From a virus (taxonomy: Duplodnaviria > Heunggongvirae > Uroviricota > Caudoviricetes > Crassvirales): a stretch of DNA of 64,000 nucleotides. The stretch lies in IMG/VR virus record IMGVR_UViG_3300035698_016817, positions 1 through 64,000 of that record; one strand, given 5' to 3'. The stretch's first letter is position 1, and each line of letters begins with the position of its first letter. Shown piece after piece: positions 1,071 through 22,770 of this stretch. The notes beneath the pieces are model-generated. The model saw nothing but the letters and a program-made list of their open reading frames with translations, was not told where the DNA came from and searched no databases. The position numbers and the translations under genes were made by a program.

Positions 1071-1086
1071 CAAAACAACTTAAGAA

Positions 1087-2955: not shown

Positions 2956-2973
2956 CAAATTAAAATTATCAAT

Positions 2974-3597: not shown

Positions 3598-3602
3598 TTT
3601 TT

Positions 3603-5528: not shown

Positions 5529-5558
5529 TTCAACTTAGTAAAGAGTCTGGAATTGTAG

Positions 5559-6011: not shown

Positions 6012-6016
6012 TTAAC

Positions 6017-7478: not shown

Positions 7479-7496
7479 TAACTAAAAATTGAAAAC

Positions 7497-8993: not shown

Positions 8994-9052
8994 TCGTATC
9001 TTTAAGAGGCAAAATAACCCCGGTATCTAGAAAGGTATCGGGGTTCATTGTC

Positions 9053-9082
9053 TATTATAAACTAGTAAACACACGACAAATG
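9053..9082 (+). promoter_or_regulatory. conserved start-proximal element TATAAAC...AAACACACGACAAATG (site 1 of 3)
   Basis: Shared with the sites at 9790-9822 and 16129-16172. Motif TATAAA(C/T), then 17-22 nt, then ATG, with the core A(C/T)ACGAC(T/A)A(T/A)ATG. Confidence 0.45.
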
Positions 9083-9796
9083 GCAAACGAAGTATTAGTA
9101 ATTGGCAACTCAGGAAGTGGAAAATCCACAAGCTATGAGCATTTAAATCCTAAAGAGACTTTTATTGTCAACGTAGGTAAGAAACCGCTTCCGTTTAAAG
9201 GATGGAAAAAGAATTACAACAATTTCAGCAAGTCTAACCCCAAAGGGAACTATTTAGAGACAGACGATGCTTCATTGATTTGTAATGCAATGGCTTACGT
9301 TGACAAAAATCGCCCTGAAATCAAGAACTTCCTTGTTGACGATGGACAGTACATCATGGCGAATGAATTCATGCGTAAAGCAAATGAAAAAGGGTATCAG
9401 AAATTCACTGATATTGCTTCTCACATGTGGAAGGTGGTTACTACCGGAAAGGCCATGCGTGAAAACATAAACTTTATTTTGGTAGGTCACGCTGACACAT
9501 CTACTGACGTTGATGGAAAAACAACTACAAGGTTCAAAACGGTTGGAAAGCTGGTTGACAATGTGGTCAACATCGAAGGCATGTTTACCGTAGTTCTTTT
9601 TACAGAAGTGAAAGTAGAACCAAACAAGACTATCAGTCATTCATTCCTGACTCAGACAGACGGCACCAATACTGCCAAAAGTCCTCGTGGCATGTTCCCA
9701 GAACTTAAGATTGAAAACGATCTTAACTATGTGATAAACACAGCGAATGCATATTACAACGATGACACAGTTGTAACAGAAACAGAATTAGTATAA
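9080..9796 (+). CDS. P-loop ATPase, Sak4-like (RecA-core recombination ATPase) candidate
   Basis: Walker A at the extreme N-terminus (VIGNSGSGKST) and Walker B-like FLVDDGQ. About 240 aa and sited near an SSB-like gene, as is typical for Sak4. Confidence 0.5.
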   Translation: MANEVLVIGNSGSGKSTSYEHLNPKETFIVNVGKKPLPFKGWKKNYNNFSKSNPKGNYLETDDASLICNAMAYVDKNRPEIKNFLVDDGQYIMANEFMRKANEKGYQKFTDIASHMWKVVTTGKAMRENINFILVGHADTSTDVDGKTTTRFKTVGKLVDNVVNIEGMFTVVLFTEVKVEPNKTISHSFLTQTDGTNTAKSPRGMFPELKIENDLNYVINTANAYYNDDTVVTETELV

Positions 9797-9822
9797 ATCA
9801 GTATCAAACATACACGACTATG
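9790..9822 (+). promoter_or_regulatory. conserved start-proximal element (site 2 of 3)
   Basis: AGTATAAATCAGTATCAAACATACACGACTATG. Confidence 0.45.
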
Positions 9823-10242
9823 ATTGAAGGACAAGAAGAACTTAACGGTTCAAAAGAAGTAAAAATGAGAGATCTTTCTACCTGCGAGGTAGTAAGCGAA
9901 GTGACAACCCGAATGATTCTTGCGGATCTTGGTGAAGGATTAACCAGAGACGAGATTGCTCTGAAATATGCTTACAAAGATCGTTTATCAGGAGAAGTGA
10001 AGGAATTTGAGAAATGGATGGTTGACATTCTTTTCAAAGATCCTGCGCTTAAAAACAAGCGTCCAGCTGCGAAAAGAAAGGTTCTTCCTTTCTTGTTCAA
10101 GTCTACTTTTCTTGAAGAAGAAGTTCAGTCGGTAGAGGAGAATGTTCTTCCTAATTTTCCAGTAGATGAAGAAGCTTCTGACGATTCAGAAGATGAAGCT
10201 TTTGATAATTCAGAAGACGAACCAATTGTTATCAATTCGTAA
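9820..10242 (+). CDS. hypothetical protein with strongly acidic C-terminal tail
   Basis: C-terminus DEEASDDSEDEAFDNSEDEP. TAATG coupling to the next gene. Confidence 0.45.
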   Translation: MIEGQEELNGSKEVKMRDLSTCEVVSEVTTRMILADLGEGLTRDEIALKYAYKDRLSGEVKEFEKWMVDILFKDPALKNKRPAAKRKVLPFLFKSTFLEEEVQSVEENVLPNFPVDEEASDDSEDEAFDNSEDEPIVINS

Positions 10243-11105
10243 TGGCTATTGAAGCCAATTCATCGGACAAAGCCGTAATCGAAGCTGGAGTGAAACACTT
10301 CACTGGAATTGCGCCTTTTCATGTGCTACTGGTCAACCCTACGTTGGCTCAGTTACACGCGGAAGGAATTATGCTTCAACAGGAGCCTAATTACAAAGAC
10401 CCGTTCAAAGACGGGAAAGCAAACAAGATTACTTTTTGGCTCGGAAACGATGTCGTAAAAGTGCCTATGGAGCTTTTCGTTAATCCTGGAGCCTGGAAGG
10501 CCAAGAAGAACGACAAAGTGAAATGGATGAATAAAATTGGTCAAGACATGTGGTCTGAAGTTCAAGCGAATGGAAAACCTAACCCTGATGACTTCAAAGA
10601 ATGGCACAAAGAGAGAGAGTCTTTCTTTCAGTGCCCAAGAGGTATTGACGACTTGATCAAGTTTATTCAAGCTTGGGCAAATGTTGCAACTGATGGAATA
10701 GTTGAACTGGACACAGTTGAAGCTATTTCTAACGGCAACGTTGCTGAATTGAAAGAGATGCTTGGTGTCTTCAAAAACAACCGAGTACGTGTACTTGTCT
10801 CAATCAGAGACGAGAAGTATCCTACTGTTTACACAAGATACTTTGGTAGAATCAATCCAGAAAGCAACGCTGGCTTCACAAAAGCCATCAACGCAGACTA
10901 TGGAGATCCTAAGGGAGAATATTCTATCGAGTGGAAAGAGTTTAAAGCGGGAGTACACACACCAGATGCTCTGGCTGATGGTGGATCTGCTAGTGGTGAA
11001 GACAACGGTTGGATGAATGCAGACGGTGACGATGAAGATGCAGAAGCAGGAGATGAAATTGCTGGGATCAATCCAGATGACATCGATGATGACCTTCCTT
11101 TCTAG
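10242..11105 (+). CDS. single-stranded DNA-binding protein-like (acidic DDDLPF C-terminal tail)
   Basis: C-terminus DDIDDDLPF mirrors the bacterial SSB partner-recruiting tail DDDIPF, and a Gly/Asp-rich linker precedes it. Confidence 0.5.
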   Translation: MAIEANSSDKAVIEAGVKHFTGIAPFHVLLVNPTLAQLHAEGIMLQQEPNYKDPFKDGKANKITFWLGNDVVKVPMELFVNPGAWKAKKNDKVKWMNKIGQDMWSEVQANGKPNPDDFKEWHKERESFFQCPRGIDDLIKFIQAWANVATDGIVELDTVEAISNGNVAELKEMLGVFKNNRVRVLVSIRDEKYPTVYTRYFGRINPESNAGFTKAINADYGDPKGEYSIEWKEFKAGVHTPDALADGGSASGEDNGWMNADGDDEDAEAGDEIAGINPDDIDDDLPF

Positions 11106-11126
11106 GAGGGGTTAGTTTTACAAACA

Positions 11127-11162
11127 AAGGGGCGTTAATTGATTTTAACGCCCCTTTTTAAT
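11127..11162 (+). terminator. rho-independent terminator
   Basis: AAAGGGGCGTTAA-ttgatt-TTAACGCCCCTTTTT. Confidence 0.75.
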
Positions 11163-11170
11163 TAGAAATC

Positions 11171-11569
11171 ATGACAAAGGATCAAGCAGAAGACATATTT
11201 AAAAACGCTTCCTTACAGAAGCCAGGTGAAGAAATTACTTATTTAGAAAGTTACGCGTTTGGATTAGGTATTAACTCTCGTAGAGAAATGATTATGTCAA
11301 TAGCAGTTGGTAGCGTTGTCGTTTTTAGGGTTATTTGTGAGATTCCAATTAGACTTGTTCTGGACGCTGACAAGGTTGCATTAACAGCTTACAGAGACAA
11401 AATGAGATGGGAGTTTGTAATCTCAATAGTAGCGGCCGGAGTTCGTAAATTAACTTTTACAGAAGAAAAAACTCTGGATTCAATTAAACCGAAAGAAGAT
11501 GATAGAGAGCCGAAACGAATCAGTAAACCTATCGTTATGCCAAATCAGATTATACCTTTCAGATTTTGA
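11171..11569 (+). CDS. hypothetical protein (132 aa)
   Basis: ORF whose 3' end overlaps the next ORF in another frame. Confidence 0.4.
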   Translation: MTKDQAEDIFKNASLQKPGEEITYLESYAFGLGINSRREMIMSIAVGSVVVFRVICEIPIRLVLDADKVALTAYRDKMRWEFVISIVAAGVRKLTFTEEKTLDSIKPKEDDREPKRISKPIVMPNQIIPFRF

Positions 11570-12470
11570 TATTTTCAAAAAGTATTGCGTGCCTTTTTCA
11601 AAAGAAGGAAAGAAGTTTAGTTCTGAATTAAGAGACGATCCTAAGCCTTCAGCGATGATCTCACAAAGAGGTGAAAAGTTGAGGTACATAGATTTTGGAT
11701 ATTCTGAGCATAGATTTGACTCAATTAGCTACGTGCAATACAAGTTTAATCTTGGCTTTATGGATGTTCTTAAGCTCATAGATCATGACTTTGCTCTTGG
11801 TCTGGGGAAAGGAACAGTACAGATGAAGAAAAGGTTTGTTGAAAGCAGGCCAAAACAAGTACCTAAAATTAAGACCGTGATACAGATAAAGGCTAGGCCC
11901 CTGACAAGATTAGATATGGAGTTTTGGGGTCAATACCATATCACCAAAGAGACGCTAAGTATGTATCACGTGGTTCCTATTAGCTACTTCTGGATTAATG
12001 GTCAAAGATTTAAAGCAGACCTGTTGGCTTACGCTTATTGTGAATACGGAAACAGAATTAAGATTTATCAACCTTTAAGCGATAGAAAATGGTTTTCAAA
12101 CGTAAACACACACGACATTCAAGGCCTATACGAGCTGCCAGTGATGGGTTCGAAAGTTATTTTGACCTCTTCCTTAAAAGATGTAATGGCTTTATCGGAA
12201 TCTACTATCCACGCTTGTGCGCTACAGTCAGAGATGATGATGCCTCACCCGAAAGCGATAAAGCTTCTTCAAAGGAAGTTTAAAGAGGTTGTCGTTTTGT
12301 ATGATAACGATTACGATAAGGACAAGAATCCTGGTCAAACAATGGCTCTTAAGATATGCGAAAAGTATAATCTTAGAAACATAGTAATACCTGAAAGATT
12401 TCAATCAAAAGATCCTTCAGATTTAATACTCACTCACGGCCCATACGTGGCCTATAATTTATTCAAATGA
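11499..12470 (+). CDS. DnaG-family primase-like protein (Toprim domain); the real start may be the ATG near 11654
   Basis: Toprim DxD motif VVVLYDNDYDKDKNPGQ and the preceding strand VILTSSLKDVMAL. No zinc-finger seen. N-terminal 70 nt overlaps the previous ORF. Confidence 0.5.
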   Translation: MIESRNESVNLSLCQIRLYLSDFDIFKKYCVPFSKEGKKFSSELRDDPKPSAMISQRGEKLRYIDFGYSEHRFDSISYVQYKFNLGFMDVLKLIDHDFALGLGKGTVQMKKRFVESRPKQVPKIKTVIQIKARPLTRLDMEFWGQYHITKETLSMYHVVPISYFWINGQRFKADLLAYAYCEYGNRIKIYQPLSDRKWFSNVNTHDIQGLYELPVMGSKVILTSSLKDVMALSESTIHACALQSEMMMPHPKAIKLLQRKFKEVVVLYDNDYDKDKNPGQTMALKICEKYNLRNIVIPERFQSKDPSDLILTHGPYVAYNLFK

Positions 12471-12769
12471 AAGACACATTATATTTTCACGGTAAAACCC
12501 AAGAAGGCAGGGCTTTTACGATTGCAGGAGAGTTTAACAACGAAGGCCTTAAGCTTGGAATAGCTCTTTGCAGCAAGAAAGATCAGCTTTACAAGAAGCT
12601 AGGTCGCAAGATTGCTAAAGGAAGAATGGAGTACAACTCAAAAGGTCAAGTAACTATAACTGGTTATTACCCAATTGAGAAAGAACGAATTGCTGTTTTT
12701 AGAGAAGTGATTGTCAAGCATTTTAACGCGAAGAAAGTAAGAGCTATTCGAATTCTCTTTCAATTGTAA
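12467..12769 (+). CDS. hypothetical protein (100 aa)
   Basis: ORF with ATGA coupling to the primase-like gene. Confidence 0.45.
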   Translation: MKDTLYFHGKTQEGRAFTIAGEFNNEGLKLGIALCSKKDQLYKKLGRKIAKGRMEYNSKGQVTITGYYPIEKERIAVFREVIVKHFNAKKVRAIRILFQL

Positions 12770-12965
12770 TGCACACTCAACAAGAAGGCGGTAACTAAAA
12801 GAAGCCACACATCATGATAGAACTAATACAAGAATTTCACTGCTTTAGCGAAGAAATAAAACTCGCATTTATCTGCTTTTCCTCTGCGCTTGGTCTTGGC
12901 CTTATTTACGCCACGATTGAAATTTCGTCAGTGTTTTTCAGGTCTATTGCTAAAATCATACGGGG

Positions 12966-13406
12966 ATGATTGGATTCAAAAAGAAAGGAAAGTCTCATAC
13001 AAAAGCAGTTAAGACTGTAGTTGATGGGATTCAATTTCAATCGAAATTAGAAGTTTACGTTTACCACGCTTTGAAAGCAGCAAAGATTCCTGCTGATTAT
13101 GAGAAGCATTCCTACGTTTTGATCCAGGGTTTTAAATCTGGTATTGAAACGTGGACGAAATGGAAAGGGGTTTACAGAGGTAGATTCAATAAAGTCCAAC
13201 CGATTACCTACAAGCCGGATTTTGTTTGTCCGACAGAACAATGGGTAATAGAAGTTAAAGGAAGAAAATTTCCAAGCTTCATGATGAGATGGAAATTGTT
13301 TCTCAGGCACTTAACAATGCGAGAGATGAACACAACCGTCTATTTAGTTTCTAGTGAAAAAGAAGCTAAAGAAGCAATTATTGACATTCAGAAATATTTT
13401 AAATGA
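12966..13406 (+). CDS. PD-(D/E)xK nuclease, DUF1064-like (resolvase-like small endonuclease)
   Basis: Pattern FQSKLEvyvYhaLK ... YKPDFVCP ... WVIEVKG matches the D ... E-x-K core of DUF1064/Vsr-like phage nucleases. Stop overlaps the GHKL ATPase start. Confidence 0.55.
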   Translation: MIGFKKKGKSHTKAVKTVVDGIQFQSKLEVYVYHALKAAKIPADYEKHSYVLIQGFKSGIETWTKWKGVYRGRFNKVQPITYKPDFVCPTEQWVIEVKGRKFPSFMMRWKLFLRHLTMREMNTTVYLVSSEKEAKEAIIDIQKYFK

Positions 13407-16123
13407 GCATAAAACAAATTGATACTCATGATGGAAAAGTGAAAGGTGTAGCAAAAAGACTTGACTCAGGTTCTGAGAAAATGATTTACGACATCCTTCA
13501 AAAGTCACAATACTCTACTCCTATACCTTCAACGGTAAGGGAGCTAGTGACTAACGCTTGCGATGCGCAACGTGAAAAAGAGATTGCAATTGATATCCTG
13601 AGCGGTAAAGCAAAGGAAGAAGACTATTACATTCGGAGGGATGGAGACGCTTACAGGTCTTCTAATTTCGATAAAGAGTACTATGATTTCAATTGGCTTG
13701 ACAAGACCATAAATCATGTTGAGATTCAATACATTAAGAATCATGGTACTGGATTTTGTGACACGTTTAAAGTCATAGATTTTGGCGTTGGTATAGGGCC
13801 TAAAAGGCTAGAAGGAATGATTTCTTTGGGTTATTCAACCAAGAGGAATACTTCTGAAGGCTTTGGTGCTTTTGGATTGGGAGCTAAAGTTGCTTTGTCA
13901 ACTAACGTTCCTTATTACACGGTTGACACGGTTTATAATGGAAAAAGGTTTTTGATAGAGTGTTCTTCATACACTACAAAGTCTAAAGTTGGAAAGTTTG
14001 ATCACGCGGGAACTGAAAGAAAATTCATCTTAATTGATGATGAAAAATTCTTTTATGAAGACGTCACAGAATTGAATCACACAATTGTAAGCTTTGGAGT
14101 TAAAAGGCATAACAGAACCGCTTTTCAGGAGGCAATTGAGGAACAATTAATTTACATTCCTGGCGTAACCTTGACCAAAATTGACACGGAGAAGAACCCA
14201 CCATCTAAAGAAAGTTCTAAGATTGAAGTTCCTACGCTGTACAATTCGAGGTCATTGGTCTTAAGCCAAGACACTGTATTTAGTAAGCCTCACATCGTTA
14301 TAGTTAAGAACTCTACTGATAAAGCCGGTATCAATTATGGGCCTGTTGACTTCAAGGAATTGGAGATGCAGGAAATGTTCGGTTCTATTGGTTTTAAATG
14401 TCCAATGCGGCAGACTTATAGAGACGATGATGGAGTTGAGCATGTAGTTCAAGAAGGAGTTTCAGTAACTCCGTCTAGGGAAAAAGTAATATGGGATGAT
14501 CCTACAAAAGCGTTTATTCAAACGGTAATTAAGTTAGCCGGAACTGAAGCCACAGCCATAGTTGAGAATGAGTTGTCTACGGAGACAGATTTCCTTGAGT
14601 GGATAAACAAGTGTCGCGAGACCTTCTCAAGAAAAGGTCATGCTTCAGTCCTCGGACGATTATCAAATATTATTGACTTGACGTCATTATCGCCAAAGTT
14701 TGGAACAAGTAAGTTCATTCGATACACTCATTTTTCAAAGATGTTTCCTGGGATTGTATTCGAGAAGATTACTGGGTATCACGGCAAAAAGCCAAAGAGA
14801 ACAGTTGTTGATTCTTGGGGTGAAATAGCTTCGCTATCAAACTTGTACGAGAAGGACGCCAATTACTCTCCAGCTAAAGACATTTATCTTTGTGTAACGA
14901 GAGGCTTAGGTTCCTTTATCACAGTGAAGCCGGTGTATCCTGAGGATGAAGCTGAATTTAACGAGCTTAATCTTTTCACTGAGGAAGAGAAAGAAGCTGC
15001 AGTAGCTAAAACCAAAGAAATTTGGTCTTACATCAAGAAAAGCAAAGCCCTTAAAAGTTACGCTGAAATTGAAGTTCCTAAAGAAGCTAAAGAAGCAATT
15101 GAGAAAGAGATTGAAGACGTTGAAGAAAAGGAAGTTGACAATCTTTCTCCTTCAGAAAGACGTAAATTAGAAAGTCGAGAAGTTGGCTACACTGTACGTT
15201 TAGATCAAAGCAAGGTGCATTCTAGTGTCAAAGCTGTTAGAGATGAGCCTTGGGTTCTGGATAAAGTAGAACCGAAAAGAATCGATTTGCTTTACACGAC
15301 CAAAGAGCTTTACTACGCTACAAGTGATGACAAAGAGCGGCTATTTGATGTAGGCCGAATGATTGAAGGTTTGATGCCCACTTCGCTTGAAGTTTACGGT
15401 CATAATAGAAACTATATGAGAAAAGAGCCATCGATGTTTGGCATCAGTAGTTCGATTCATTATCGAAATTCTAAAGATCAGTTGATTAATGTTAATGCAT
15501 TTAAAGATAAGCCTCAGTTTATCCAGATACGCAGAGATTTAGTCAAGAAGATTCCTGCTGCTTCAGAAATGATGCACATTGATGATTTCACGCTAACTAG
15601 AACACCGGAAGATGCTTACACGACACACCCGATGCTAGTACATGCTTTCACAGCTAGGATGATTGGTGAAGATTGGGCTATCAAATTTGGAAAGTTCATG
15701 GCTCACTTTAAACAAGTTGACAAGCAGATGTATGACAAATACATTAAGCTAGAAAATTACATGAAGCCTTTTCGTGACAGGAAGGGCATCACGCAAGACA
15801 CTAGCCTTACAAAAGAGCTTGACAAGTTGTGGCAATTTCAGCAATTTTGCATGTTCCATGATGAGAAAGAGATCAAGATTAGAAGCATGCAAGACTTTGT
15901 TCTTTGCGATGTGAAAGGAGCTATTGTGGTTGATATGGAATTCCTGAATCTTTACAAAGAATTGATGGATTATGCGGAAGGAGTTTCCGGATTACTTAAT
16001 ATGTTACCAGATGAAGTTTATACTGACAGCTTAGCTGTTGTAGAGATTCAAAGGTTTTTAAAAGCCTCGGACAGAAGTAATTGGAAGTGGGACGACCCTG
16101 TAAATTCCGTACCTTCAGAGTAA
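13403..16123 (+). CDS. GHKL-superfamily (Bergerat-fold) ATPase, 906 aa, Hsp90/MORC-like motif pattern
   Basis: N-box ELVTNACDA, G1 box VIDFGVGIG, G2 box GAFGLGAKVA in the first 160 aa. Long C-terminal extension with an EAKEAIEKEIEDVEEKE coiled segment. Confidence 0.7.
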   Translation: MSIKQIDTHDGKVKGVAKRLDSGSEKMIYDILQKSQYSTPIPSTVRELVTNACDAQREKEIAIDILSGKAKEEDYYIRRDGDAYRSSNFDKEYYDFNWLDKTINHVEIQYIKNHGTGFCDTFKVIDFGVGIGPKRLEGMISLGYSTKRNTSEGFGAFGLGAKVALSTNVPYYTVDTVYNGKRFLIECSSYTTKSKVGKFDHAGTERKFILIDDEKFFYEDVTELNHTIVSFGVKRHNRTAFQEAIEEQLIYIPGVTLTKIDTEKNPPSKESSKIEVPTLYNSRSLVLSQDTVFSKPHIVIVKNSTDKAGINYGPVDFKELEMQEMFGSIGFKCPMRQTYRDDDGVEHVVQEGVSVTPSREKVIWDDPTKAFIQTVIKLAGTEATAIVENELSTETDFLEWINKCRETFSRKGHASVLGRLSNIIDLTSLSPKFGTSKFIRYTHFSKMFPGIVFEKITGYHGKKPKRTVVDSWGEIASLSNLYEKDANYSPAKDIYLCVTRGLGSFITVKPVYPEDEAEFNELNLFTEEEKEAAVAKTKEIWSYIKKSKALKSYAEIEVPKEAKEAIEKEIEDVEEKEVDNLSPSERRKLESREVGYTVRLDQSKVHSSVKAVRDEPWVLDKVEPKRIDLLYTTKELYYATSDDKERLFDVGRMIEGLMPTSLEVYGHNRNYMRKEPSMFGISSSIHYRNSKDQLINVNAFKDKPQFIQIRRDLVKKIPAASEMMHIDDFTLTRTPEDAYTTHPMLVHAFTARMIGEDWAIKFGKFMAHFKQVDKQMYDKYIKLENYMKPFRDRKGITQDTSLTKELDKLWQFQQFCMFHDEKEIKIRSMQDFVLCDVKGAIVVDMEFLNLYKELMDYAEGVSGLLNMLPDEVYTDSLAVVEIQRFLKASDRSNWKWDDPVNSVPSE

Positions 16124-16128
16124 GAAAA

Positions 16129-16172
16129 AATTATAAACAAACAAATTATAAACAAACAAATACACGACTATG
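16129..16172 (+). promoter_or_regulatory. conserved start-proximal element with tandem ATTATAAACAAACAA duplication (site 3 of 3)
   Basis: AATTATAAACAAACAAATTATAAACAAACAAATACACGACTATG. Confidence 0.45.
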
Positions 16173-17345
16173 ATAACGATAAATGTTATTGATAAAATGA
16201 TCGTTGGCAGTATTGGTGAAGAGGGGTTTTCAATTCCTTACACTAAAGAGCGATACGATACCCTTGATGGTTTCGAGGAGGAGTTGGCAAAATGCGCAAC
16301 TCCAGAGGAATACAATAAAGTTTTGGCCAAGGCTAAGCAACTTTGTGCGGAAGTAACCGAGGGCATGATTGAGACAGAATGTGAATTCATTACTGTTGAT
16401 CCTAAGACTCACAAATACTTCTTGAAGTACAACAAGGTTATTTCAGACATTGCGATGCCTCAAGCGCTTGTTGATCGAATTTTGGAATCTGTAGACAAAG
16501 ATCTTCCTTTCCTTCCTCTTGTTAAGATGTGGGTACGTTTTCTTCGTAACCCTAACTTGAGAAAGAAAAACAAGGGAGGGAAGTTTGCAAAGAAATTTTT
16601 CAATTTCATTAACATTACTTACGTCAACCCAGAGTTGAAAGCTAAGTTGATGGAAGAAGGTGGTTTTAACGATGAAGTTGCTTCTAAACGTGCGACTATG
16701 TATCAAATGAAAATCACCAAGGAAGGGTTGCTAAACGGGTACAAAGTATCTTGTGAGGTAATGCACAAGTTTGAAGCTGATTCAAATGGTCAACCTCAAA
16801 GAGTTGATCGTTACTTACGTACGTTTGATGTAAACACTGGGAAGATTACTGGAACAGGTTTGCCTGACACCGTTGAAGAACGTTTGTTTGAGCCTGCTAT
16901 TCAGGGTCAGTCTGGAGATGCGTTTTCTTGTTCTGGTCAGCACGGTTTTCCTGCTGATGGACACTTCATCAAAGTTGGTTGTCTTCACGCTCTTGATAGC
17001 TGGGACAAAGTAAACATTGATGACAGCAAAAGCTGTGTTCCTGGTCTTCACGTTGGAGGCTTGAACTACATTGATGGTATCCGTGGAGAAATCCACAGCG
17101 TATTTATTGACCCAATGCATGTTGGGGCTGTTCCAGATGATTCAATAGGAGCGCTTCGTTGTAAGCAATACTTTGTACATGGGTCTCTTGCTGGTGTAAA
17201 TGGAAGCATTTACCACAGTTCAGATTACGCTTCAACAACTGATGCTGAATGGAAATCAATGCTTTCTGAAGCTATTTTGTTGAAAAACGAAGAGCTTAAA
17301 AAAGCAGAGCAAGGTTTAGACAACTTGAAAGCGCTTACTTCATAA
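16170..17345 (+). CDS. hypothetical protein (391 aa), His/Cys-rich C-terminal half
   Basis: ORF preceded by a tandem ATTATAAACAAACAA repeat and the ACACGACTATG motif, and followed by a terminator. Confidence 0.5.
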   Translation: MITINVIDKMIVGSIGEEGFSIPYTKERYDTLDGFEEELAKCATPEEYNKVLAKAKQLCAEVTEGMIETECEFITVDPKTHKYFLKYNKVISDIAMPQALVDRILESVDKDLPFLPLVKMWVRFLRNPNLRKKNKGGKFAKKFFNFINITYVNPELKAKLMEEGGFNDEVASKRATMYQMKITKEGLLNGYKVSCEVMHKFEADSNGQPQRVDRYLRTFDVNTGKITGTGLPDTVEERLFEPAIQGQSGDAFSCSGQHGFPADGHFIKVGCLHALDSWDKVNIDDSKSCVPGLHVGGLNYIDGIRGEIHSVFIDPMHVGAVPDDSIGALRCKQYFVHGSLAGVNGSIYHSSDYASTTDAEWKSMLSEAILLKNEELKKAEQGLDNLKALTS

Positions 17346-17365
17346 GTAGGTTCTATTACGGTTTT

Positions 17366-17405
17366 AAAGGGTGTAAGGGTCAAATCTTACACCCTTTTCT
17401 ATTTA
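17366..17405 (+). terminator. rho-independent terminator
   Basis: AAGGGTGTAAG-ggtcaaat-CTTACACCCTTTTCTATTT. Confidence 0.7.
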
Positions 17406-17420
17406 TTTAAAAAGAAGAAG

Positions 17421-18248
17421 ATGTTATCAATTCAAGAGAGAGGGCAGTTACATCTTATAGACAGATCGCTGTTTATGAGAGACTCTCCAATTGTTGCTTT
17501 GATAGACGCTGATAGCTTGATTTATATGTCTATGGTTAAAAACACAACCTATGAAGACGCTATATTAAAGCTTGACACTGACATGTGTAATTTATTGAAC
17601 AAGTTAAAGGTCAATAAGTACATCGCGTTTACTACGCCAAGGATGCATTTTAGGAGAGGCATTGCAAAAACAAAACCTTACAAAGGCAATAGATCTGGCA
17701 GATTAACGCCGCCTATGTTTTACGCGGTTGAAGCTTATGCAAAGCAAGAATGGGGATTCAACCCCATATTGGGAATTGAAGCAGATGATGCCGTGGGCAT
17801 ATATCAAACTAGACTTAGAAATGAAGGTGTTGACACTATCATTTGTAGTCCAGATAAAGATGTAGTCAAGCAGACTCCAGGTCGGCACTGGAATTATTTT
17901 AAGAAAGAGTGGGTTAATACTACTTCAGAAGAAGCTTGGCAATTTCTTTGGGAGCAAGCAGCAACTGGAGATAGTGTTGATCAAATACCGGGAATTCACG
18001 GAGTAGGAGCAAAGACAATGGAGAAAGCTTTTCTTAAAGTAAGAAAAGAAGATTATCCTATACGTGTTTTGCAAATGTACATTGAGAAAAGAGGAGAGAA
18101 AGAGAGCATAAAAAATGCTATTGATAGATTCAAGGAAACTTTTGATTTAGTTTACATGCTGAATGATGAGTCTGAGGCCAATAAACTTGGCATTCAAATC
18201 CCTGATACTAAAGTTCTCGACATCCAGGACATATACAATGAGCAATGA
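17421..18248 (+). CDS. FEN-family 5'-3' exonuclease / flap endonuclease (phage RNase H-like)
   Basis: PIN-domain motifs ALIDADSLIY and GIEADDAVG. H3TH motif IPGIHGVGAKTMEKAF. Confidence 0.8.
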   Translation: MLSIQERGQLHLIDRSLFMRDSPIVALIDADSLIYMSMVKNTTYEDAILKLDTDMCNLLNKLKVNKYIAFTTPRMHFRRGIAKTKPYKGNRSGRLTPPMFYAVEAYAKQEWGFNPILGIEADDAVGIYQTRLRNEGVDTIICSPDKDVVKQTPGRHWNYFKKEWVNTTSEEAWQFLWEQAATGDSVDQIPGIHGVGAKTMEKAFLKVRKEDYPIRVLQMYIEKRGEKESIKNAIDRFKETFDLVYMLNDESEANKLGIQIPDTKVLDIQDIYNEQ

Positions 18249-19008
18249 CCCGGTTATTACAGTAAAAGATCCCTTAACAGTTTTAGTATCTAATGCTCAA
18301 GACGTAAGGAAAGAAGAAGACGAGAATGGTGAGATCGTCAGTCTGGAGATACCAGATGTTCCCACTGTCAAGCTTGGCAACAAATTGATTATTGGGAGGT
18401 TTAAGCAAACTTTTAGAGTAAACAAAATCGTGTTAAAGGAAGGTATTGTTCCTCCTGTATACGAATTGAAAATTGCTTTAAGAACTAAAGCCTCTTTATT
18501 TATACTCCCTATGTTGCCAGGGGCGAAATATCGATATTACTATGACGACTTATTGTTAAACGCGTTTATTGCAACGCCAGAACACGAAGACGTTGTAGCG
18601 CTCCTTTATAGGTGGAGCGGAATTAAAGGTTTCTCTGAAATGGAGAAAGCCTTTACACAGCTAAACATATTTGTAAAGCATTACGACCCAGACAAAAAGA
18701 CAACTCTTTACGTTTTTAAGGTGCCAGAAAAGCACATTTCTGACTTCATTAAGTTTAAAGAAGGAAAGTACTCGGAGATTTCCGAAACATACAAACGTAG
18801 GATCCTTAGTTTTCATAATGTAGATAGGGAAAATGTTCTTGGCAAAATCCTTTACAAGGACAAGTCTAGAATGATGGAGCTTAAAGAAAAGTTCTGGAGT
18901 AGTGACGATAGAAGGATGAATAAGGTAGTTGACTTAATGGATGCTGAGCTATATAGCATTCCAAACTTAACTACAGAGACTTTTGATCCACACGTTTATC
19001 GTTTATGA
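18238..19008 (+). CDS. hypothetical protein (start trimmed to ATG at 18238; track ORF begins 18163)
   Basis: ORF. The upstream part of the track ORF overlaps the FEN gene, and the first in-frame ATG lying right at the FEN stop is MSNDPVITV. Confidence 0.5.
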   Translation: MSNDPVITVKDPLTVLVSNAQDVRKEEDENGEIVSLEIPDVPTVKLGNKLIIGRFKQTFRVNKIVLKEGIVPPVYELKIALRTKASLFILPMLPGAKYRYYYDDLLLNAFIATPEHEDVVALLYRWSGIKGFSEMEKAFTQLNIFVKHYDPDKKTTLYVFKVPEKHISDFIKFKEGKYSEISETYKRRILSFHNVDRENVLGKILYKDKSRMMELKEKFWSSDDRRMNKVVDLMDAELYSIPNLTTETFDPHVYRL

Positions 19009-19205
19009 CAGATATGCGAGCTATTCACGTTACGCTATCAGCAAGAGACAAAAGCTCTGTTTCTGCTGATGGAGTACGTGTCATTGAAGACGGAACCAGA
19101 GATTCGGTTTTTACAGTAATAGACACAAATAATAGAGAAGCAGTTTACAAGGAGTGGTTCGACAATCATCCTAAAATCAAACCTAGAAATTATGAAAAAC
19201 ACTGA
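19005..19205 (+). CDS. hypothetical small protein (66 aa)
   Basis: Short ORF in a translationally coupled run. Confidence 0.35.
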   Translation: MTDMRAIHVTLSARDKSSVSADGVRVIEDGTRDSVFTVIDTNNREAVYKEWFDNHPKIKPRNYEKH

Positions 19206-19434
19206 AAAGACTGTAACGGTAACGAGTAAAAATAAAGACGTTTACATCGTTACTGGTGAATATGATCACCCTAAGTTTTTAATCAATATGGTGGCAATGG
19301 GTCCTTTGAAACGCGAAGTTACCAAGTACATACACGCTGCATTACTAAGAGAGCTTGCAACGTTAGCCGTAGAGGCTTGTTGGGAAAATGTGCAAGAAGA
19401 AAAAGAATACGCTAAAGGACTTGAAAATGATTAA
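19192..19434 (+). CDS. hypothetical small protein (80 aa)
   Basis: Short ORF that is coupled. Confidence 0.35.
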   Translation: MKNTEKTVTVTSKNKDVYIVTGEYDHPKFLINMVAMGPLKREVTKYIHAALLRELATLAVEACWENVQEEKEYAKGLEND

Positions 19435-19603
19435 TCAATTAGATTTAAAAACTAAACCAAAGCCTATTTGGCCAATCAGTCTTGTTCTGTTGCTAATCTC
19501 GTTAATAGGGATTTTCAACTTGATAAAAATGAAAGAAGAATCAATTAACGTTTTAAATCACGCCAATGGAAGTGCTAATAAAGTCATTAACGTTAGACGT
19601 TGA
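19388..19603 (+). CDS. hypothetical small membrane protein (71 aa)
   Basis: Hydrophobic helix PIWPISLVLLLISLIGIFNLI. Confidence 0.35.
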   Translation: MCKKKKNTLKDLKMINQLDLKTKPKPIWPISLVLLLISLIGIFNLIKMKEESINVLNHANGSANKVINVRR

Positions 19604-19787
19604 TTATGACATCACTCCTGGACAAAAAGAAGCATATCCCTTTACACCTGCTGACCCAGACGTCATTGAAGTTACAGGAATCACTTGGACTGACAGAAGA
19701 ATGGAAGGGCACGACGTATTGGAGCTTTTCCACGACTTGGGAATGATGGAGGAAATTGAAACAGCCGTTTGCCAAAACTTAGATTAA
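19566..19787 (+). CDS. hypothetical small protein (73 aa)
   Basis: Short ORF followed by a 170-nt non-coding gap. Confidence 0.35.
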   Translation: MEVLIKSLTLDVDYDITPGQKEAYPFTPADPDVIEVTGITWTDRRMEGHDVLELFHDLGMMEEIETAVCQNLD

Positions 19788-19957
19788 TGAAGAACGGAGT
19801 TGAAGATGTTGTTTATTATTTCTTGCTTTATTGGAAGGACAAAAACCTTAAAAAATACCAAGCAATTGCAGGAAAGAAAAGGCTTTGTGATTTAACTCCA
19901 GGCGAATTGAGCATATTGTACAAATCAATAAAATTATTAACCCAGTAAATTACAATC

Positions 19958-20329
19958 ATGTCTACAGAATTAGAAGGAATGGAAGGTGCCTTAGCGGACT
20001 CGTTAAGAAGAGGGTCAAAACAGATCCGTAGCGCAAGAGCGTTGGCAATCGCTGAAAGCACCGAAATGGTGTACAAGCGTAAAATGGAAGATATTGAGAT
20101 GAAGCTTAAGCGCATGCGCAGAGAGCAAGATTCTCAACTAGATCTTAGCCCAGACAACACTACAAGTTTGATCTTGGCCAAAGATTTCGATGAGATAGCT
20201 TTCATCGACAATGATCTTGATTATAGCATCAAGATTCGCGAAGAAGAGATTCGCCTCAAACTTGCACAAGAACGTTATACATTCCTGTTTGGGACTGTAG
20301 AAGATAAATCAATAAAAACTAATTCGTAA
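19958..20329 (+). CDS. hypothetical protein (123 aa), first gene of a four-gene coupled cassette
   Basis: ORF with TAATG overlap to the vWA gene. Charged, predicted helical. Confidence 0.45.
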   Translation: MSTELEGMEGALADSLRRGSKQIRSARALAIAESTEMVYKRKMEDIEMKLKRMRREQDSQLDLSPDNTTSLILAKDFDEIAFIDNDLDYSIKIREEEIRLKLAQERYTFLFGTVEDKSIKTNS

Positions 20330-21237
20330 TGGGAGGAGGATCGTATTCAGTATCAAATTCAATATTAAGCCGTGACGCTGTAAACTCACACACCGGTAAC
20401 ACCTACAGAAATGCTCCAACAAAAGAGCTTTTTAAGGAAACAAAAATTCATCAAAATCTAGATCCTAGAGGGGTCGCATTCAGAGAGTGCCGTGACAACG
20501 CTGATCATCCAAACGCTATTCCTTTGCAGGTTTACTTGGATGTTACAGGAAGCATGGGTCACATTCCTGTTAACTTCATTCGTGATGGATTGCCAACTAT
20601 GATGGGAACTTTGCTTCAAGCTGGAGTTCCTGATACCGCTCTAATGTTTGGAGCAATTGGTGATCACGAGTATGACAGAGCCCCTCTTCAGGTTGGGCAA
20701 TTTGAAGCAGACGATGAGCTTTTAGATGTTCACCTTAAGAACACTTACCTCGAAGGTGGAGGTGGCGGAAACAGAGGAGAGAGCTACGCTTTAGCTTGGG
20801 CCTTTGCTGGAAGACACGTTAAAACTGACGCTTGGGAAAAGAGAAAACAAAAAGGATTTGTCTTCACGATTGGTGACGAAGCGTTTTTGAATCATTACCC
20901 GAAAGAAGCTTTTGACAAAATTCAAGGTGAAGTTTCGGTAGCTCAAGGTGTTTCTTCTGCAGCTCAATTGTTAGAGTTGGCTGAAGAAACAAATCACGTG
21001 TTTCACATTCATGTTGATCATGGAAGACCCGTTGATTCAGCTTGGAGAGAATTGCTTGGAGATAATCTACTTATAGTGGTAGATTATCTGAAGATTCCTG
21101 AGCTTATTGCTGAGAAGATTCTTGAATTTTCTGCAGATTTCGGTAAGAAGATTGTAGAAAGTGATCCTATCATTAAAGCTGAAGGAGCTATCACCGTAGG
21201 TGATTTGCCTTCATCTGAGACAACCATTAAGCTTTAA
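20329..21237 (+). CDS. von Willebrand factor A (vWA) domain protein
   Basis: MIDAS motif YLDVTGSMG, downstream FVFTIGDEAF (hhhhTDG-like), and a Gly-rich EGGGGGNRGE loop. Confidence 0.6.
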   Translation: MGGGSYSVSNSILSRDAVNSHTGNTYRNAPTKELFKETKIHQNLDPRGVAFRECRDNADHPNAIPLQVYLDVTGSMGHIPVNFIRDGLPTMMGTLLQAGVPDTALMFGAIGDHEYDRAPLQVGQFEADDELLDVHLKNTYLEGGGGGNRGESYALAWAFAGRHVKTDAWEKRKQKGFVFTIGDEAFLNHYPKEAFDKIQGEVSVAQGVSSAAQLLELAEETNHVFHIHVDHGRPVDSAWRELLGDNLLIVVDYLKIPELIAEKILEFSADFGKKIVESDPIIKAEGAITVGDLPSSETTIKL

Positions 21238-22350
21238 ATGAGGGCCCAAGTAGTTTTGGGTCTTGGCTATGGAGACGAGGGAAAAGGTCTTACGACTGCT
21301 TTCCTTGTTTCAAAGGCTAAGAACCCTGCAGTTATTCGATTCAATGGTGGGCATCAAGCTGGCCACACAGTTGTCAAAGACGGTATCAGTCACGTTTCTT
21401 CGTCTTATGGTTCAGGAGTTCTTTATGGGGCTCTCACGTACATCATGAACAGTTGCGTGATTTATCCAAGAGCCATAATTAATGAAAACCACGTTTTGAA
21501 GTCTAAGATGAAAGTCATCCCGCCTTTGCACGTGCACCCATTTACTCCAGTAACTACTCCTTTTGAGTTGATGGTAAATCAAAAAATGGAAGAGCTACGC
21601 GGAACAAAAAGACACGGCAGTGTGGGCGTGGGATTTGGAGAGACTCTTCAAAGAGAGGAAAATCATTATCATCTTTTTGCTCAAGACCTTCTATTTCCTT
21701 CAATTCTCAAGTTGAAATTGAAGAACATACAGGAGAATTGCTATCCCAACTTTGATTTTGGTCGGGAGAAAATGGACGAGTTCCTTGAAGAGTGTAGAAA
21801 AACAGCAGAGATCATCAAGATTGACAATGGAAACAACGTTTTCTTTGATTATGAAGAATTGATTTTTGAAGGCGCTCAAGGTGTTCTATTGGATCAAAAA
21901 TTTGGTTTCTTTCCAAACGTGACTAGGTCAAACACTACTTCTCAAAACATAAATCAATTTTTAGCAGCACTTGAAGTGGTGCCAGAGATGTATTACGTAA
22001 CGAGAAGCTATGTAACCAGACACGGAGCTGGCCCAATGCTTAACGAAGACAATGATATTCTTTTGAATAACGCAGAAAAGGAGACCAACAAATCGGACCC
22101 ATTTCAAGGCGATCTTCGTTATGGACAATTAGATGTTGAAGCTATAAATTACGCTTTAATGTGTGACATGCAGTACTCGAACTTTCCAACGATTGACCGA
22201 CATTTAGTCGTAACTTGTATGGACCAGTTTGACTTAAATTTAGCGCCTGTTTTAGACGAAATAGAAATGAACTTTACCAGCATCTTAACCTCTCATGGTC
22301 CGGAAGCCAAACATGTAACAGATTACAAACCTTTAACAATTTCAAAATGA
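21238..22350 (+). CDS. adenylosuccinate synthetase homolog (PurA family; short form, PurZ-like candidate)
   Basis: N-terminal P-loop VVLGLGYGDEGKG (PurA: VVLGTQWGDEGKG). Also RFNGGHQAGHTVV (PurA: RYQGGHNAGHTLV), FEGAQGVLLD ... VTRSNTTS (PurA: FEGAQGTLLD ... VTSSNTTA) and YVTRHGAGP. At 370 aa it lacks about 60 C-terminal residues relative to cellular PurA. Confidence 0.8.
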   Translation: MRAQVVLGLGYGDEGKGLTTAFLVSKAKNPAVIRFNGGHQAGHTVVKDGISHVSSSYGSGVLYGALTYIMNSCVIYPRAIINENHVLKSKMKVIPPLHVHPFTPVTTPFELMVNQKMEELRGTKRHGSVGVGFGETLQREENHYHLFAQDLLFPSILKLKLKNIQENCYPNFDFGREKMDEFLEECRKTAEIIKIDNGNNVFFDYEELIFEGAQGVLLDQKFGFFPNVTRSNTTSQNINQFLAALEVVPEMYYVTRSYVTRHGAGPMLNEDNDILLNNAEKETNKSDPFQGDLRYGQLDVEAINYALMCDMQYSNFPTIDRHLVVTCMDQFDLNLAPVLDEIEMNFTSILTSHGPEAKHVTDYKPLTISK

Positions 22351-22715
22351 ATAAGAAAGAACAAATCGAAGAGCTGTTGATAAATCAAAAGAAAATTTGT
22401 CAGCAAGCAATTGGTGGACAAAGCACATCTTCAAAGAACGCTCGCAAAAGAATCCTACAATCTAAGTCAGTTAACATCCCTGATTATTTGACTAAAGAAA
22501 ATCCTGTGAAGAAAGCAGCTCCAGTTGTTAAGGAAGTTGAAGTAATCAAAGAAGTTAAGGTTGAAGTTGAAGTGATTAAAGAGGTTGAAGTAATTCTCGA
22601 AACAATTGTTGAGAAAGTTGTAATTGAAAAAGTTACTAATCTTCATGTTACTGTTCTTGCAGTAGTAATCTCTGCATTACTTTCGTTTGTTGCGGGTGCA
22701 ACTTTATTCGGATAA
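22347..22715 (+). CDS. C-terminally membrane-anchored protein with tandem EVEVIKEV repeats
   Basis: Tandem roughly 24-nt repeats at 22519-22600 encode VKEVEVIKEVKVEVEVIKEVEVI. C-terminal TM helix LAVVISALLSFVAGATLF. Confidence 0.5.
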   Translation: MNKKEQIEELLINQKKICQQAIGGQSTSSKNARKRILQSKSVNIPDYLTKENPVKKAAPVVKEVEVIKEVKVEVEVIKEVEVILETIVEKVVIEKVTNLHVTVLAVVISALLSFVAGATLFG

Positions 22716-22732
22716 GACATATTAAACAAAAC

Positions 22733-22770
22733 AAAAAGCCACTCCTTCACAGGGGTGGCTTTTTTTTTTA
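22733..22770. terminator. bidirectional rho-independent terminator between convergent gene blocks
   Basis: AAAAAGCCACTCC-ttcaca-GGGGTGGCTTTTTTTTTT. A-run on one side and T-run on the other, so it can act on both strands. The stop codon of the - strand 1604-aa ORF lies inside the T-run. Confidence 0.75.

Follow-up and report, generated by a model that had tools for sequence, protein, structure and literature searches.

A conserved gene triad of large phages and Flavobacteriia pairs a vWA-fold protein with a divergent PurA-family enzyme

Three consecutive genes in the phage DNA analysed here (a single 64-kb stretch, hereafter the window) form a widespread module that recurs in many large, mutually unrelated phages and on Flavobacteriia chromosomes. 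The triad consists of a predicted helical-hairpin protein (g1), a protein of predicted vWA fold (g2) and a divergent PurA-family enzyme (g3) whose sequence sets it apart from PurZ as well as from ordinary PurA. The best hint at the function of the triad is that its genomic surroundings tie it to NAD+/ADP-ribose genes and not to DNA base modification, a connection that the earlier note on this DNA missed. In our preferred reading, to which we give about an even chance, the triad is a NAD+/ADP-ribose-linked module whose core is a GTP-dependent purine-C6 ligase that uses an acceptor other than aspartate, and a fourth gene (g4) is an unrelated extra.

We read the cassette from the sequence as four ORFs (Table 1), with the junctions TAATG between g1 and g2 (overlap of 1 nt), TAAATG between g2 and g3 (stop and start codons abutting) and ATGA between g3 and g4 (overlap of 4 nt). 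The ORFs and junctions are present as first described, as are the intergenic gap upstream and the bidirectional terminator at the cassette end. Overlapping gene junctions are ordinary in phage operons. The gap contains a weak sigma-70-like match and a sole, unconserved ORF that starts with TTG; this ORF is probably spurious because just 37 nt separate g1 from its upstream gene in the closest relative contig (L168). The terminator is a strong hairpin (folding energy –21.4 kcal/mol, z = –6.6) that separates a + strand replication/auxiliary operon from a – strand structural operon. No DNA similarity to known phages was found for the cassette.

Table 1. Features of the cassette and its flanks (positions in the 64-kb window)
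Feature	Position	Strand	Description
ORF in gap	19769..19948		59 aa, TTG start
Intergenic gap before module	19788..19957	+	170 nt
Sigma-70-like match in gap	19907..19934		weak
Cassette	19958..22715	+	four ORFs
g1	19958..20329	+	123 aa
g2	20329..21237	+	302 aa
g3	21238..22350	+	370 aa
g4	22347..22715	+	122 aa
Bidirectional intrinsic terminator	22733..22764	.	14-bp stem, A-run on 5' side, T-run on 3' side

We compared gene order in 80 IMG/VR phage loci, found through g2, and in 80 bacterial loci. The g2 and g3 genes are adjacent in every untruncated locus (i.e. 77/80 phage loci, the remaining three ending before g3, and 80/80 bacterial loci), and g1 is the gene immediately preceding g2 in 67/80 phage loci and in 75/80 bacterial ones. 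The order g1–g2–g3 on one strand, usually with overlaps of 1 or 4 nt, characterizes the IMG/VR loci, and the bacterial loci share this order. We could not detect g1 in ∼16% of the phage loci or in the cultured phage lineages. Gene order conserved in ∼160 independent loci exceeds chance, the 80 bacterial loci being dominated by two genera. Among GenBank phages, counts of g2 and g3 match in three lineages (201 vs 202 in Mycobacterium, 10/10 in Rhizobium and 6/6 in Vibrio phages), with one copy of each in Mycolicibacterium phages, and in each of the three lineages one representative phage has the two genes side by side; the pair is found in Bixzunavirus, with the model phage Bxz1 as a carrier. 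In total, 297 viral contigs and at least 473 stretches in species-representative bacterial genomes were confirmed as relatives. Inteins occur within g3 of one contig (L046) and within g2 of phage Cane17, which suggests that both genes are under strong selection. The triad is autonomous in phages because no other neighbour is shared, the next commonest family occurring in just 9/85 loci. The gene-neighbourhood check proposed in the earlier note thus finds the genes kept together rather than scattered in related phages. Its view that the module is absent from described phage systems also holds: literature searches on adenylosuccinate synthetase with vWA, NADAR, ADP-ribose or (anti-)defence returned no description of it.

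The fourth gene behaves differently. Its product carries a duplicated EVEVIKEV motif and a hydrophobic anchor at the C-terminus, in agreement with its first description as a repeat-bearing, tail-anchored protein, and the 4-nt overlap couples its start to g3 (translational coupling). However, phmmer found no homologue of g4 in 87 loci, and the genes 3' of g3 vary among relatives. These observations rule out the four-gene complex and reduce the originally claimed four-gene unit to a conserved g1–g2–g3 part, with g4 as a predicted lineage-specific membrane gene outside the module. A conserved membrane-associated complex, also raised in the earlier note, is unlikely because g4 is lineage-specific.

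The g1 product is modelled by AF2 as a helical hairpin (pLDDT 86), with helices at residues 20–59 and 79–111 joined by a conserved loop (LDLSP...DFD) in which Asp62 is the sole invariant column of an alignment of 91 sequences. The family comprises 626 representative clusters and has no match in Pfam, PHROG or NCBIfam; a fold search against the PDB gave no match with E < 1, the insignificant matches being helical. Longer proteins that contain g1 are mostly HNH endonuclease fusions or mis-calls and are uninformative. None of g1, g2 and g3 matches a PADLOC anti-phage defence model.

For g2, alignments reveal an invariant MIDAS-type motif of the DxTxS variant (D71-x-T73-x-S75) and a T180-x-GDE element with invariant T180, G182, D183 and E184, in addition to a GGGGN-GESY loop, an invariant N-terminal Met1-Gly2 and a disordered tail (residues 275–302) with an invariant final Leu. 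The AF2 model has a vWA Rossmann-like fold (pLDDT 79.9), and its top Foldseek matches in the PDB, all at probability 1.0, are integrin beta-I, collagen VI vWA, NorD and MDN1 MIDAS domains. All of these fold-search matches are generic to vWA. Model and motif agree with the vWA (MIDAS) identity first proposed for this product and indicate a vWA-fold protein with an intact MIDAS-type motif and predicted metal binding. By sequence, g2 matches no curated vWA model in Pfam or NCBIfam and nothing in a profile search against the PDB; its sole family match is phrog_2971, of unknown function in PHROG, and more than 7000 relatives score, none informatively named among the matches listed.

Pfam assigns the g3 product to the PurA family (PF00709, E = 6e-45), and its best sequence matches in the PDB are bacterial PurA. 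We conducted a census of 156 g3 sequences with positions aligned to PurA. The catalytic residues are almost uniformly retained (D13 and K16 in 155/156, H41 and Q224 in 156/156), Thr239 of the purine site is invariant, and the GTP site is kept with its GDEGKG P-loop and with equivalents of both guanine-specificity elements retained in the C-terminal alignment (TCxD for TKLD and SxxP for STGP). The first half-reaction of g3 is therefore probably PurA-like (i.e. GTP-dependent phosphorylation of the purine C6 carbonyl), given the retained P-loop, catalytic, purine and guanine-specificity residues. Among the changed positions, T301 is replaced by Q in 155/156 and V273 by an invariant His in 156/156.

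The pairing of such an enzyme with a vWA protein could instead indicate an NTPase–vWA remodelling or assembly chaperone of the MoxR–vWA, NorQ–NorD or CbbQ–CbbO kind, with g3 a mere GTPase switch and the vWA protein binding ADP-ribosylated or misfolded clients. Pairing of vWA proteins with NTPases is common, PurA is a P-loop NTPase, the structural matches of g2 include NorD and MDN1 MIDAS domains, and vWA 'peptide-binding chaperones' have been proposed in NrtR/ARG-centred ADP-ribose operons (Iyer et al. 2022, PMC9503650). Nevertheless, we consider a chaperone unlikely: g3 is not an AAA+ protein, and ligase chemistry is favoured over a mere switch because the purine-acting D13, Q224 and T239 are invariant and the new invariant Q301 and H273 line the second-substrate site.

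The genomic context points to NAD+ and ADP-ribose. On chromosomes of Chryseobacterium and Flavobacterium, the triad is embedded in NrtR-linked NAD+/ADP-ribose operons, with predicted ADP-ribosyltransferases and NARP1-like genes among the members. Neighbours in the 80 cellular loci include NrtR (73), Macro/ARH (65), DUF4291 (59), PARG (57), NADAR (54), SIR2 (48), Tpt1 (39), PRPP-synthetase-like (16) and NAMPT-like (12) genes; the listed loci are mostly from the two genera named above, and 80 operons are not 80 independent observations. NADAR, PRPP-synthetase-like plus NAMPT, NMNAT/Nudix and Ro60/TROVE genes also neighbour the triad in phages, where NAD-related neighbours are a minority (4–9/85 loci). 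Auxiliary genes cluster in large phages anyway. No NAD/ADP-ribose gene was recognized in the window with Pfam or PHROG, about half of its ORFs being without a family match and the genome being longer than the window. Independently, PF00709 genes have been reported in 60% of the neighbourhoods of a DarT-like ADP-ribosyltransferase family (PMC12522546).

Part of this context would also suit a module that acts on nucleic acid as a repair or editing system, for example one that re-aminates inosine or modifies a 6-oxopurine of RNA or DNA as a step of NAD+-dependent RNA repair. Tpt1/KptA genes adjoin 39/80 cellular loci, Ro60/TROVE occurs in 9/85 phage loci and in phiKT1024, a polynucleotide kinase is found in Cane17 and HIRAN in RHph_TM39, 2OG-Fe(II) oxygenase and DarT-like DUF2971 genes are further neighbours, and a polymer substrate would fit the lost 5'-phosphate contacts of g3 described below. 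The same neighbours, however, also fit soluble ADP-ribose metabolism, no nucleic-acid-binding domain was recognized in g1, g2 or g3, and PurA-family enzymes are not known to act on polymers. We regard nucleic-acid repair as unlikely.

A more conventional reading, which we rate as improbable, is that g3 is an ordinary host-acquired auxiliary purA that boosts AMP synthesis, with the vWA and g1 genes as unrelated neighbours. It would accord with the PF00709 match, the retained D13, K16, H41, Q224 and GTP motifs, the bacterial PurA enzymes as nearest solved structures and the database name adenylosuccinate synthase. In E. coli PurA, Thr301 and Arg303 of the TTGRRRR loop bind aspartate, and R143 (from the partner subunit) and T129 contact the IMP 5'-phosphate. 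In g3, by contrast, the aspartate loop has given way to a clade-specific (Y/F)-Q-(G/K)-(E/D)-(F/L)-R motif (F-Q-G-D-L-R in the window); R303 is changed to E or D in 93/156 sequences, with K or N next and Arg never among the commonest residues. The phosphate contacts are lost, with T129 changed to C (132) or V (22) and R143 to P, H or F across the census, and g3 lacks the C-terminal insert of ∼75 residues that bacterial PurA has. Scores against the purA equivalog models reach about one third of their cut-offs (NF002223, 133.6 bits vs 402; TIGR00184, 117.9 bits vs 395.6). Linkage to g2 is near-obligate in ∼160 loci and three cultured phage lineages, and on chromosomes the gene is found in ADP-ribose operons instead of purine operons. 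The residue census and scores also argue against the refuting outcome named in the earlier note, an ordinary host-derived purA. Taken together, the sequence features suggest that g3 resembles adenylosuccinate synthetase but probably performs a different reaction.

That g3 is PurZ or PurZ0 and the cassette part of a 2-aminoadenine (dZ) genome pathway is scarcely credible: PHROG labels its family (phrog_1211) '2-aminooxy adenylosuccinate synthetase', RefSeq phage homologues are labelled likewise, and g3 is short, as are PurZ and archaeal PurA, but the pathway is contradicted by the Asp13 criterion (Asp is kept by g3 and in 155/156 relatives, whereas Ser occupies this position in all 147 phage PurZ/PurZ0 sequences (PMC12884076) and S14D abolishes PurZ selectivity (bioRxiv 10.1101/2025.10.22.683976)), by the NCBIfam PurZ score (NF038379, 49.3 bits vs a cut-off of 300) and by the lack of identified Z-cluster genes (no ORF was identified with Pfam or PHROG as DatZ, MazZ, DUF550, DpoZ, DutZ or DmtZ within the window, where many ORFs are unmatched and beyond which the genome extends), while the PDB matches include zero PurZ chains and the constant partners of g3 are the vWA protein and g1, not Z-cluster genes. 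Of the 'PurA/PurZ-like' label first given to g3, the PurA half thus stands and the PurZ half falls.

For the NAD+/ADP-ribose-linked ligase module that we prefer, conserved residues and gene order are the basis of the proposed substrate, amine acceptor and g1–g2–g3 complex. The g3 enzyme would phosphorylate, at the expense of GTP, the 6-oxo group of a purine of hypoxanthine or guanine type, probably other than a plain 5'-monophosphate, and would then link purine C6 to an amine other than aspartate. The g1 and g2 proteins may bind each other in such a way that Asp62, the invariant residue of the g1 loop, would complete the MIDAS metal site of g2; the g2 tail, which is disordered and ends in Leu, and/or the invariant N-terminal Gly of g2 may contact g3, and both proteins may serve g3 as adaptor, regulator or substrate. 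The phage would express the module at the end of its replication operon. The most likely benefit would be coping with host NAD+-depleting or ADP-ribosylating immunity, or restoring a damaged adenine or NAD-related nucleotide. Its products would include neither adenylosuccinate nor 2-aminoadenine DNA.

A more specific and distinctly more tentative proposal is that the triad constitutes a new enzymatic system: a GTP-dependent ligase derived from PurA would join a 6-oxopurine nucleotide, at its C6, to an amine other than aspartate. It has two versions: (i) the substrate could be a hypoxanthine analogue of ADP-ribose, NAD or ATP that arises from deaminase-type immunity and would be directly re-aminated; or (ii) the amine could be a protein amine (e.g. 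the invariant N-terminal Gly of the vWA partner). Either version, if true, would be a new reaction in the NAD+/ADP-ribose conflicts of phages and Flavobacteria, would give the PurA fold a role outside purine biosynthesis and would account for the obligatory coupling of a MIDAS protein to g3.

The triad is large and unnamed, and g3-type enzymes are routinely mislabelled 'adenylosuccinate synthase' or 'PurZ', so that purine auxiliary genes and dZ-genome phages are overcounted. Its bacterial context places it in NAD+/ADP-ribose systems, a field that is still yielding new phage counter-defence pathways. As three small soluble proteins, the triad is directly testable, and hosts are in culture for the phages (M. 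smegmatis, Vibrio and Rhizobium), while Chryseobacterium and Flavobacterium are cultivable.

Among known systems, PurA (EC 6.3.4.4; PF00709; E. coli 1ADE) shares its fold family with g3, including GDEGKG, Asp13, His41, Gln224, Thr239 and equivalents of TKLD and STGP. The g3 enzyme differs in its new aspartate loop, the invariant His at V273, the missing IMP 5'-phosphate contacts, the deleted C-terminal insert and its constant pairing with a vWA protein. PurZ/PurZ0 (PDB 6FM1, 7ODX and 7VF6) are, like g3, short phage-borne PurA homologues under the same PHROGs annotation; however, PurZ has Ser where g3 has Asp13, and it travels with DatZ/MazZ/DpoZ or DutZ/DmtZ (PMC12884076), whereas g3 has no identified Z-cluster neighbours. 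In the Lmac_3114 family (DarT-like ART, PMC12522546), a PF00709 gene likewise lies near ADP-ribosylation genes, with AAA and Nudix genes in P. aeruginosa, but no vWA or g1 is reported there and the PurA-like clade may differ from that of g3. The AAA+–vWA pairs (i.e. MoxR–vWA, NorQ–NorD, CbbQ–CbbO and Mg-chelatase) also couple an NTPase gene to a MIDAS vWA gene. The triad instead has a PurA-fold partner without an AAA+ ring and an extra helical-hairpin protein, and neighbour counts in phages and cells show no conserved AAA+ gene beside it.

The closest parallels in context are two NAD-related systems. A 292-kb phage contig (L004) and Flavivirga (L090) have PRPP-synthetase-like and NAMPT-like genes flanking the triad, an arrangement that recalls NARP1 (Adps + Namat). 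NARP1-like genes adjoin the triad in some other loci only (L004, L090, L109 and L138), and neither Adps nor Namat was recognized in the window. The triad goes unmentioned in the papers on NARP1 and NARP3; NARP1 and the triad are both autonomous auxiliary modules of large phages, with unrelated proteins. The NrtR/ARG-centred operons (Iyer, Burroughs, Anantharaman and Aravind 2022, PMC9503650) share with bacterial triad loci the NrtR-type Nudix regulator, ADP-ribosylglycohydrolase, Macro, NADAR and phosphoesterases, and a vWA 'chaperone' was noted in their neighbourhoods. A word search of that paper returned no PurA-family gene and nothing g1-like, and the module is not described there in phages. 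The defining genes occur in the bacterial loci (NrtR in 73/80 and Macro/ARH in 65/80), not in the phage window itself. Compared with those operons, the bacterial triad operons also hold the writers SIR2, Tpt1, DUF4291 and DUF2971 and are not eraser-only.

The conserved unit of the cassette is a triad of genes, i.e. g1, g2 and g3, which encode a helical hairpin, a MIDAS vWA protein and a divergent PurA-family enzyme, respectively. An IMG/VR search with g2 gave 297 confirmed loci, 80 of which were fetched. In 77/80, g3 lies directly downstream of g2 on the same strand (the other three loci end at the stretch edge), often with g2–g3 overlaps of 1 or 4 nt, and g1 lies directly upstream of g2 in 67/80. 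The gene-neighbourhood check proposed in the earlier note thereby finds the triad genes together, not scattered, in homologous phages. Some phage loci that appear to lack g1 contain a diverged helical protein at its position, and a few contain none. In GenBank, g2 and g3 match the same three phage lineages with agreeing counts, i.e. Mycobacterium (201 for g2 vs 202 for g3, plus one Mycolicibacterium each), Rhizobium (10/10) and Vibrio phages (6/6); surplus g3 matches fall on canonical purA, in records that are bacterial or short. The two genes adjoin in all three lineages (one representative inspected per lineage), in which g1 was not detected. Besides the triad, the commonest family, Ro60/TROVE, occurs in 9/85 phage loci (L051 and eight others) and no other family exceeds this number; this makes the triad an autonomous module that moves between otherwise unrelated genomes (contigs of 15–675 kb). 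The Ro60/TROVE neighbours carry a Ro60-type vWA domain. Inteins were also found: a LAGLIDADG intein interrupts one g3 homologue (L046), and the Bixzunavirus g2 homologue of Mycobacterium phage Cane17 (L002) is 605 aa long because of a Hint-domain intein. Such elements tend to survive where the gene is important and the insertion site conserved.

The window comes from a crAss-like phage, the host of which is probably a member of the Bacteroidota and perhaps of the Flavobacteriia. The cassette lies at the 3' end of a replication block that contains an ATP-dependent ligase, two helicases, a Sak4-like protein, a primase, an RIIA-like protein and a 5'–3' exonuclease; an RIIB-like PHROG match is also present in the crAss-like replication block. 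The four ORFs (123, 302, 370 and 122 aa) and their junctions (TAATG, TAA-ATG and ATGA) are as the earlier note described them, and the 170-nt gap ahead of them is real. The sole ORF in this gap fills most of it, and is probably not a gene because it is missing from the closest relative contig (L168), where a spacer of only 37 nt precedes g1. The hairpin after g4 folds at -21.4 kcal/mol (z = -6.6). The observation of a coupled cassette is real, but its boundary was drawn wrongly, the conserved unit being three genes rather than four. The fourth product does carry the duplicated EVEVIKEV motif and C-terminal hydrophobic membrane anchor attributed to it, but the search of the fetched loci gave no homologue of g4, and the genes after g3 differ among relatives. 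This orphan tail-anchored protein may serve in lysis, membrane anchoring or something else.

Coordinates of features in the window and in selected homologous loci
Sequence	Feature	Position	Strand	Remark
Window	Replication block	~300 to 19800	+	
Window	RIIA-like protein, 906 aa	13403-16123	+	phrog_612; inside replication block
Window	ORF, 59 aa	19769-19948		TTG start
Window	170-nt gap	19788-19957		
Window	g4, 122 aa	22347-22715		
Window	Hairpin	22733-22764		A-run on one flank, T-run on the other
Window	- strand block	22768-63827	-	Structural side
Window	Giant ORF, 1604 aa	22768-27582	-	
Window	Giant ORF, 4191 aa	27583-40158	-	
Window	Giant ORF, 1703 aa	44534-49645	-	
Window	Capsid-related ORF	61230-62681	-	~30% identity to crAssphage and cr8_1 major capsid proteins
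L001 (phiKT1024)	TROVE protein	8388-9896		
L002 (Cane17)	g2 homologue with intein	2906-4723		
L046	g3 homologue with intein	5913-8321		
L051	Ro60/TROVE	805-2259		

Relatives of g2 are also found in bacteria (at least 473 among genomes scanned at one per GTDB species). Among the best 80 of these at least 473 loci, mostly from Chryseobacterium and Flavobacterium and also from Flavivirga and Cellulophaga, the g2–g3 pair is present in 80/80 and g1 in 75/80; lepA flanks 56/80, so these triads are chromosomal copies. They are located inside operons of NAD+/ADP-ribose genes, and their neighbours in these best 80 loci, which represent mainly two genera, include an NrtR-type Nudix regulator (73/80), Macro/ADP-ribosylglycohydrolase (65/80), DUF4291 (59/80), PARG (57/80), NADAR (54/80), SIR2 (48/80), Tpt1/KptA (39/80), 2OG-Fe(II) oxygenase (38/80), PRPP-synthetase-like and metallophosphoesterase (16/80 each), NAMPT-like (12/80) and DUF2971 (11/80) genes. 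The gene order in Flavivirga is PRPP-synthetase-like ... ARH–Tpt1–g1–g2–g3–NAMPT-like. DUF4291 and DUF2971 are predicted ADP-ribosyltransferases (ARTs), and PF00709 genes were independently reported to accompany a DarT-like ART family in 60% of the neighbourhoods (PMC12522546). Flavobacterium, Chryseobacterium and Flavivirga chromosomes (L138, L148 and L090) contain large NrtR-linked operons with erasers (i.e. Macro, ARH, PARG and NADAR), writers (i.e. SIR2, Tpt1 and the predicted ARTs DUF4291 and DUF2971), a 2OG-Fe(II) oxygenase and NARP1-like genes; in Chryseobacterium, these operons are conserved beside lepA.

The pattern recurs in part around phage copies, with NAD-related neighbours in a minority of loci: in a 292-kb contig, the triad is preceded by PRPP-synthetase-like and NADAR genes and followed by NAMPT, RHph_TM39 has a phosphoribosyltransferase and NMNAT/Nudix near the g2–g3 pair, Vibrio phage phiKT1024 has NADAR and a TROVE protein near the pair, and in several loci NADAR directly follows g3. 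No NAD-related gene was recognised in the 64-kb window. The genomic link of the triad to NAD+/ADP-ribose biology is consistent. The RNA-repair genes that recur as triad neighbours would fit a nucleic acid substrate equally well.

The only match of g2 is phrog_2971, annotated as function unknown, and more than 7000 relatives lack an informative name. Its AF2 model (pLDDT 80) matches integrin beta-I, collagen VI vWA, NorD and MDN1 MIDAS domains in Foldseek (probability 1.0), and the MIDAS-type D71-x-T73-x-S75 and T180-x-G-D-E are invariant; the predicted fold and these motifs identify g2 as a true vWA/MIDAS protein, as had been proposed. Also invariant are Met1-Gly2 and the final Leu, though the latter ends a disordered, otherwise variable tail. 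The g1 protein has no Pfam, PHROG, NCBIfam or PADLOC family match. In an exhaustive profile search, its family comprises 626 representative clusters, and almost all of these proteins stand alone, at a length of 110–150 aa. Its AF2 model (91 sequences, pLDDT 86) is a helical hairpin (helices 20–59 and 79–111) with a conserved loop, 'LDLSP...DFD', between the helices, in which Asp62 is the only invariant column of the 91-sequence alignment; a fold search against solved structures returned nothing at E < 1. HNH endonuclease genes are often inserted beside g1 or fused with it.

The g3 protein matches PF00709 (profile positions 1–316), and its closest solved relatives in a PDB sequence search are bacterial PurA, with no PurZ chain matched. 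In an alignment of 156 triad-associated sequences with PurA from E. coli and Salmonella, the retained positions are D13 and K16 (155/156 each), H41 and Q224 (156/156 each) and T239 (152/156), and the guanine-specificity elements TKLD and STGP, found as TCxD and SxxP, were counted as retained. Changed positions are T301 (Q in 155/156), R303 (E or D in 93/156, K or N next), T300 (aromatic), V273 (H in 156/156), N38 (Q in 154/156), T129 (C or V) and R143 (P, H or F), and the ∼75-residue insert of bacterial PurA is absent. In E. coli PurA, we take T301 and R303 to be aspartate contacts, and T129 and R143 to be IMP 5'-phosphate contacts. Judged from these residues, (i) the first half-reaction, i.e. 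GTP-dependent activation of the purine C6 carbonyl, is probably kept in g3; (ii) we infer an amine acceptor other than aspartate; and (iii) the purine substrate is probably other than a plain 5'-monophosphate.

An ordinary PurA, including the host-derived purA that the earlier note considered, is improbable because the aspartate-loop and 5'-phosphate positions are changed and the NCBIfam purA score is 134 bits vs a cut-off of 402; the module would be partly PurA-like in its working, yet several defining PurA features are missing. PurZ, the phage PurA relative of the 2-aminoadenine DNA pathway, fails on every criterion tested, with the catalytic Asp kept and a score of 49 bits vs a cut-off of 300, so that only the PurA half of the 'PurA/PurZ-like' label stands. 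Phage PurZ and PurZ0 have Ser instead of the catalytic Asp13 in 147/147 sequences (PMC12884076), and S14D abolishes PurZ selectivity (bioRxiv 10.1101/2025.10.22.683976). Triad-type PurA-like genes (e.g. NC_054716.1 gp253 and in NC_070966.1) carry the label '2-aminooxy adenylosuccinate synthetase' in RefSeq, a PurZ-type label also used in PHROGs; with the catalytic Asp kept, this is probably a systematic mis-annotation.

We propose that g3 would act as a purine-C6 ligase that depends on GTP and uses a new acceptor, while g1 and g2 could pair through the MIDAS site, for which Asp62 of g1 would supply the acidic ligand, much as the acid-centred motifs LDV and IDSP do in integrin ligands. The g2 tail and/or N-terminal Gly may contact g3. 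The phage module would be made along with the replication genes, and its target could be an ADP-ribose-related substrate or a product of host immunity of the NAD+/ADP-ribose-centred or deaminase type.

In brief, the triad is a widespread, uncharacterised module, not an ordinary one, and its enzyme is generally mis-annotated. No description of it was found in the literature searched, in agreement with the view that it is not a module from described phage systems; De Souza and Aravind 2012 may still mention it. MoxR-/NorQD-type systems differ in that their vWA partner is an AAA+ ATPase, which the g2 partner is not. The bacterial triad operons appear similar to the NrtR/ARG-centred ADP-ribose systems that Iyer et al. 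2022 (PMC9503650) predicted; a vWA 'chaperone' is mentioned in that paper, and word searches of it gave no PurA-family gene. Truly new chemistry seems rather unlikely, and we rate the triad as a variant among the known NAD+/ADP-ribose conflict systems.
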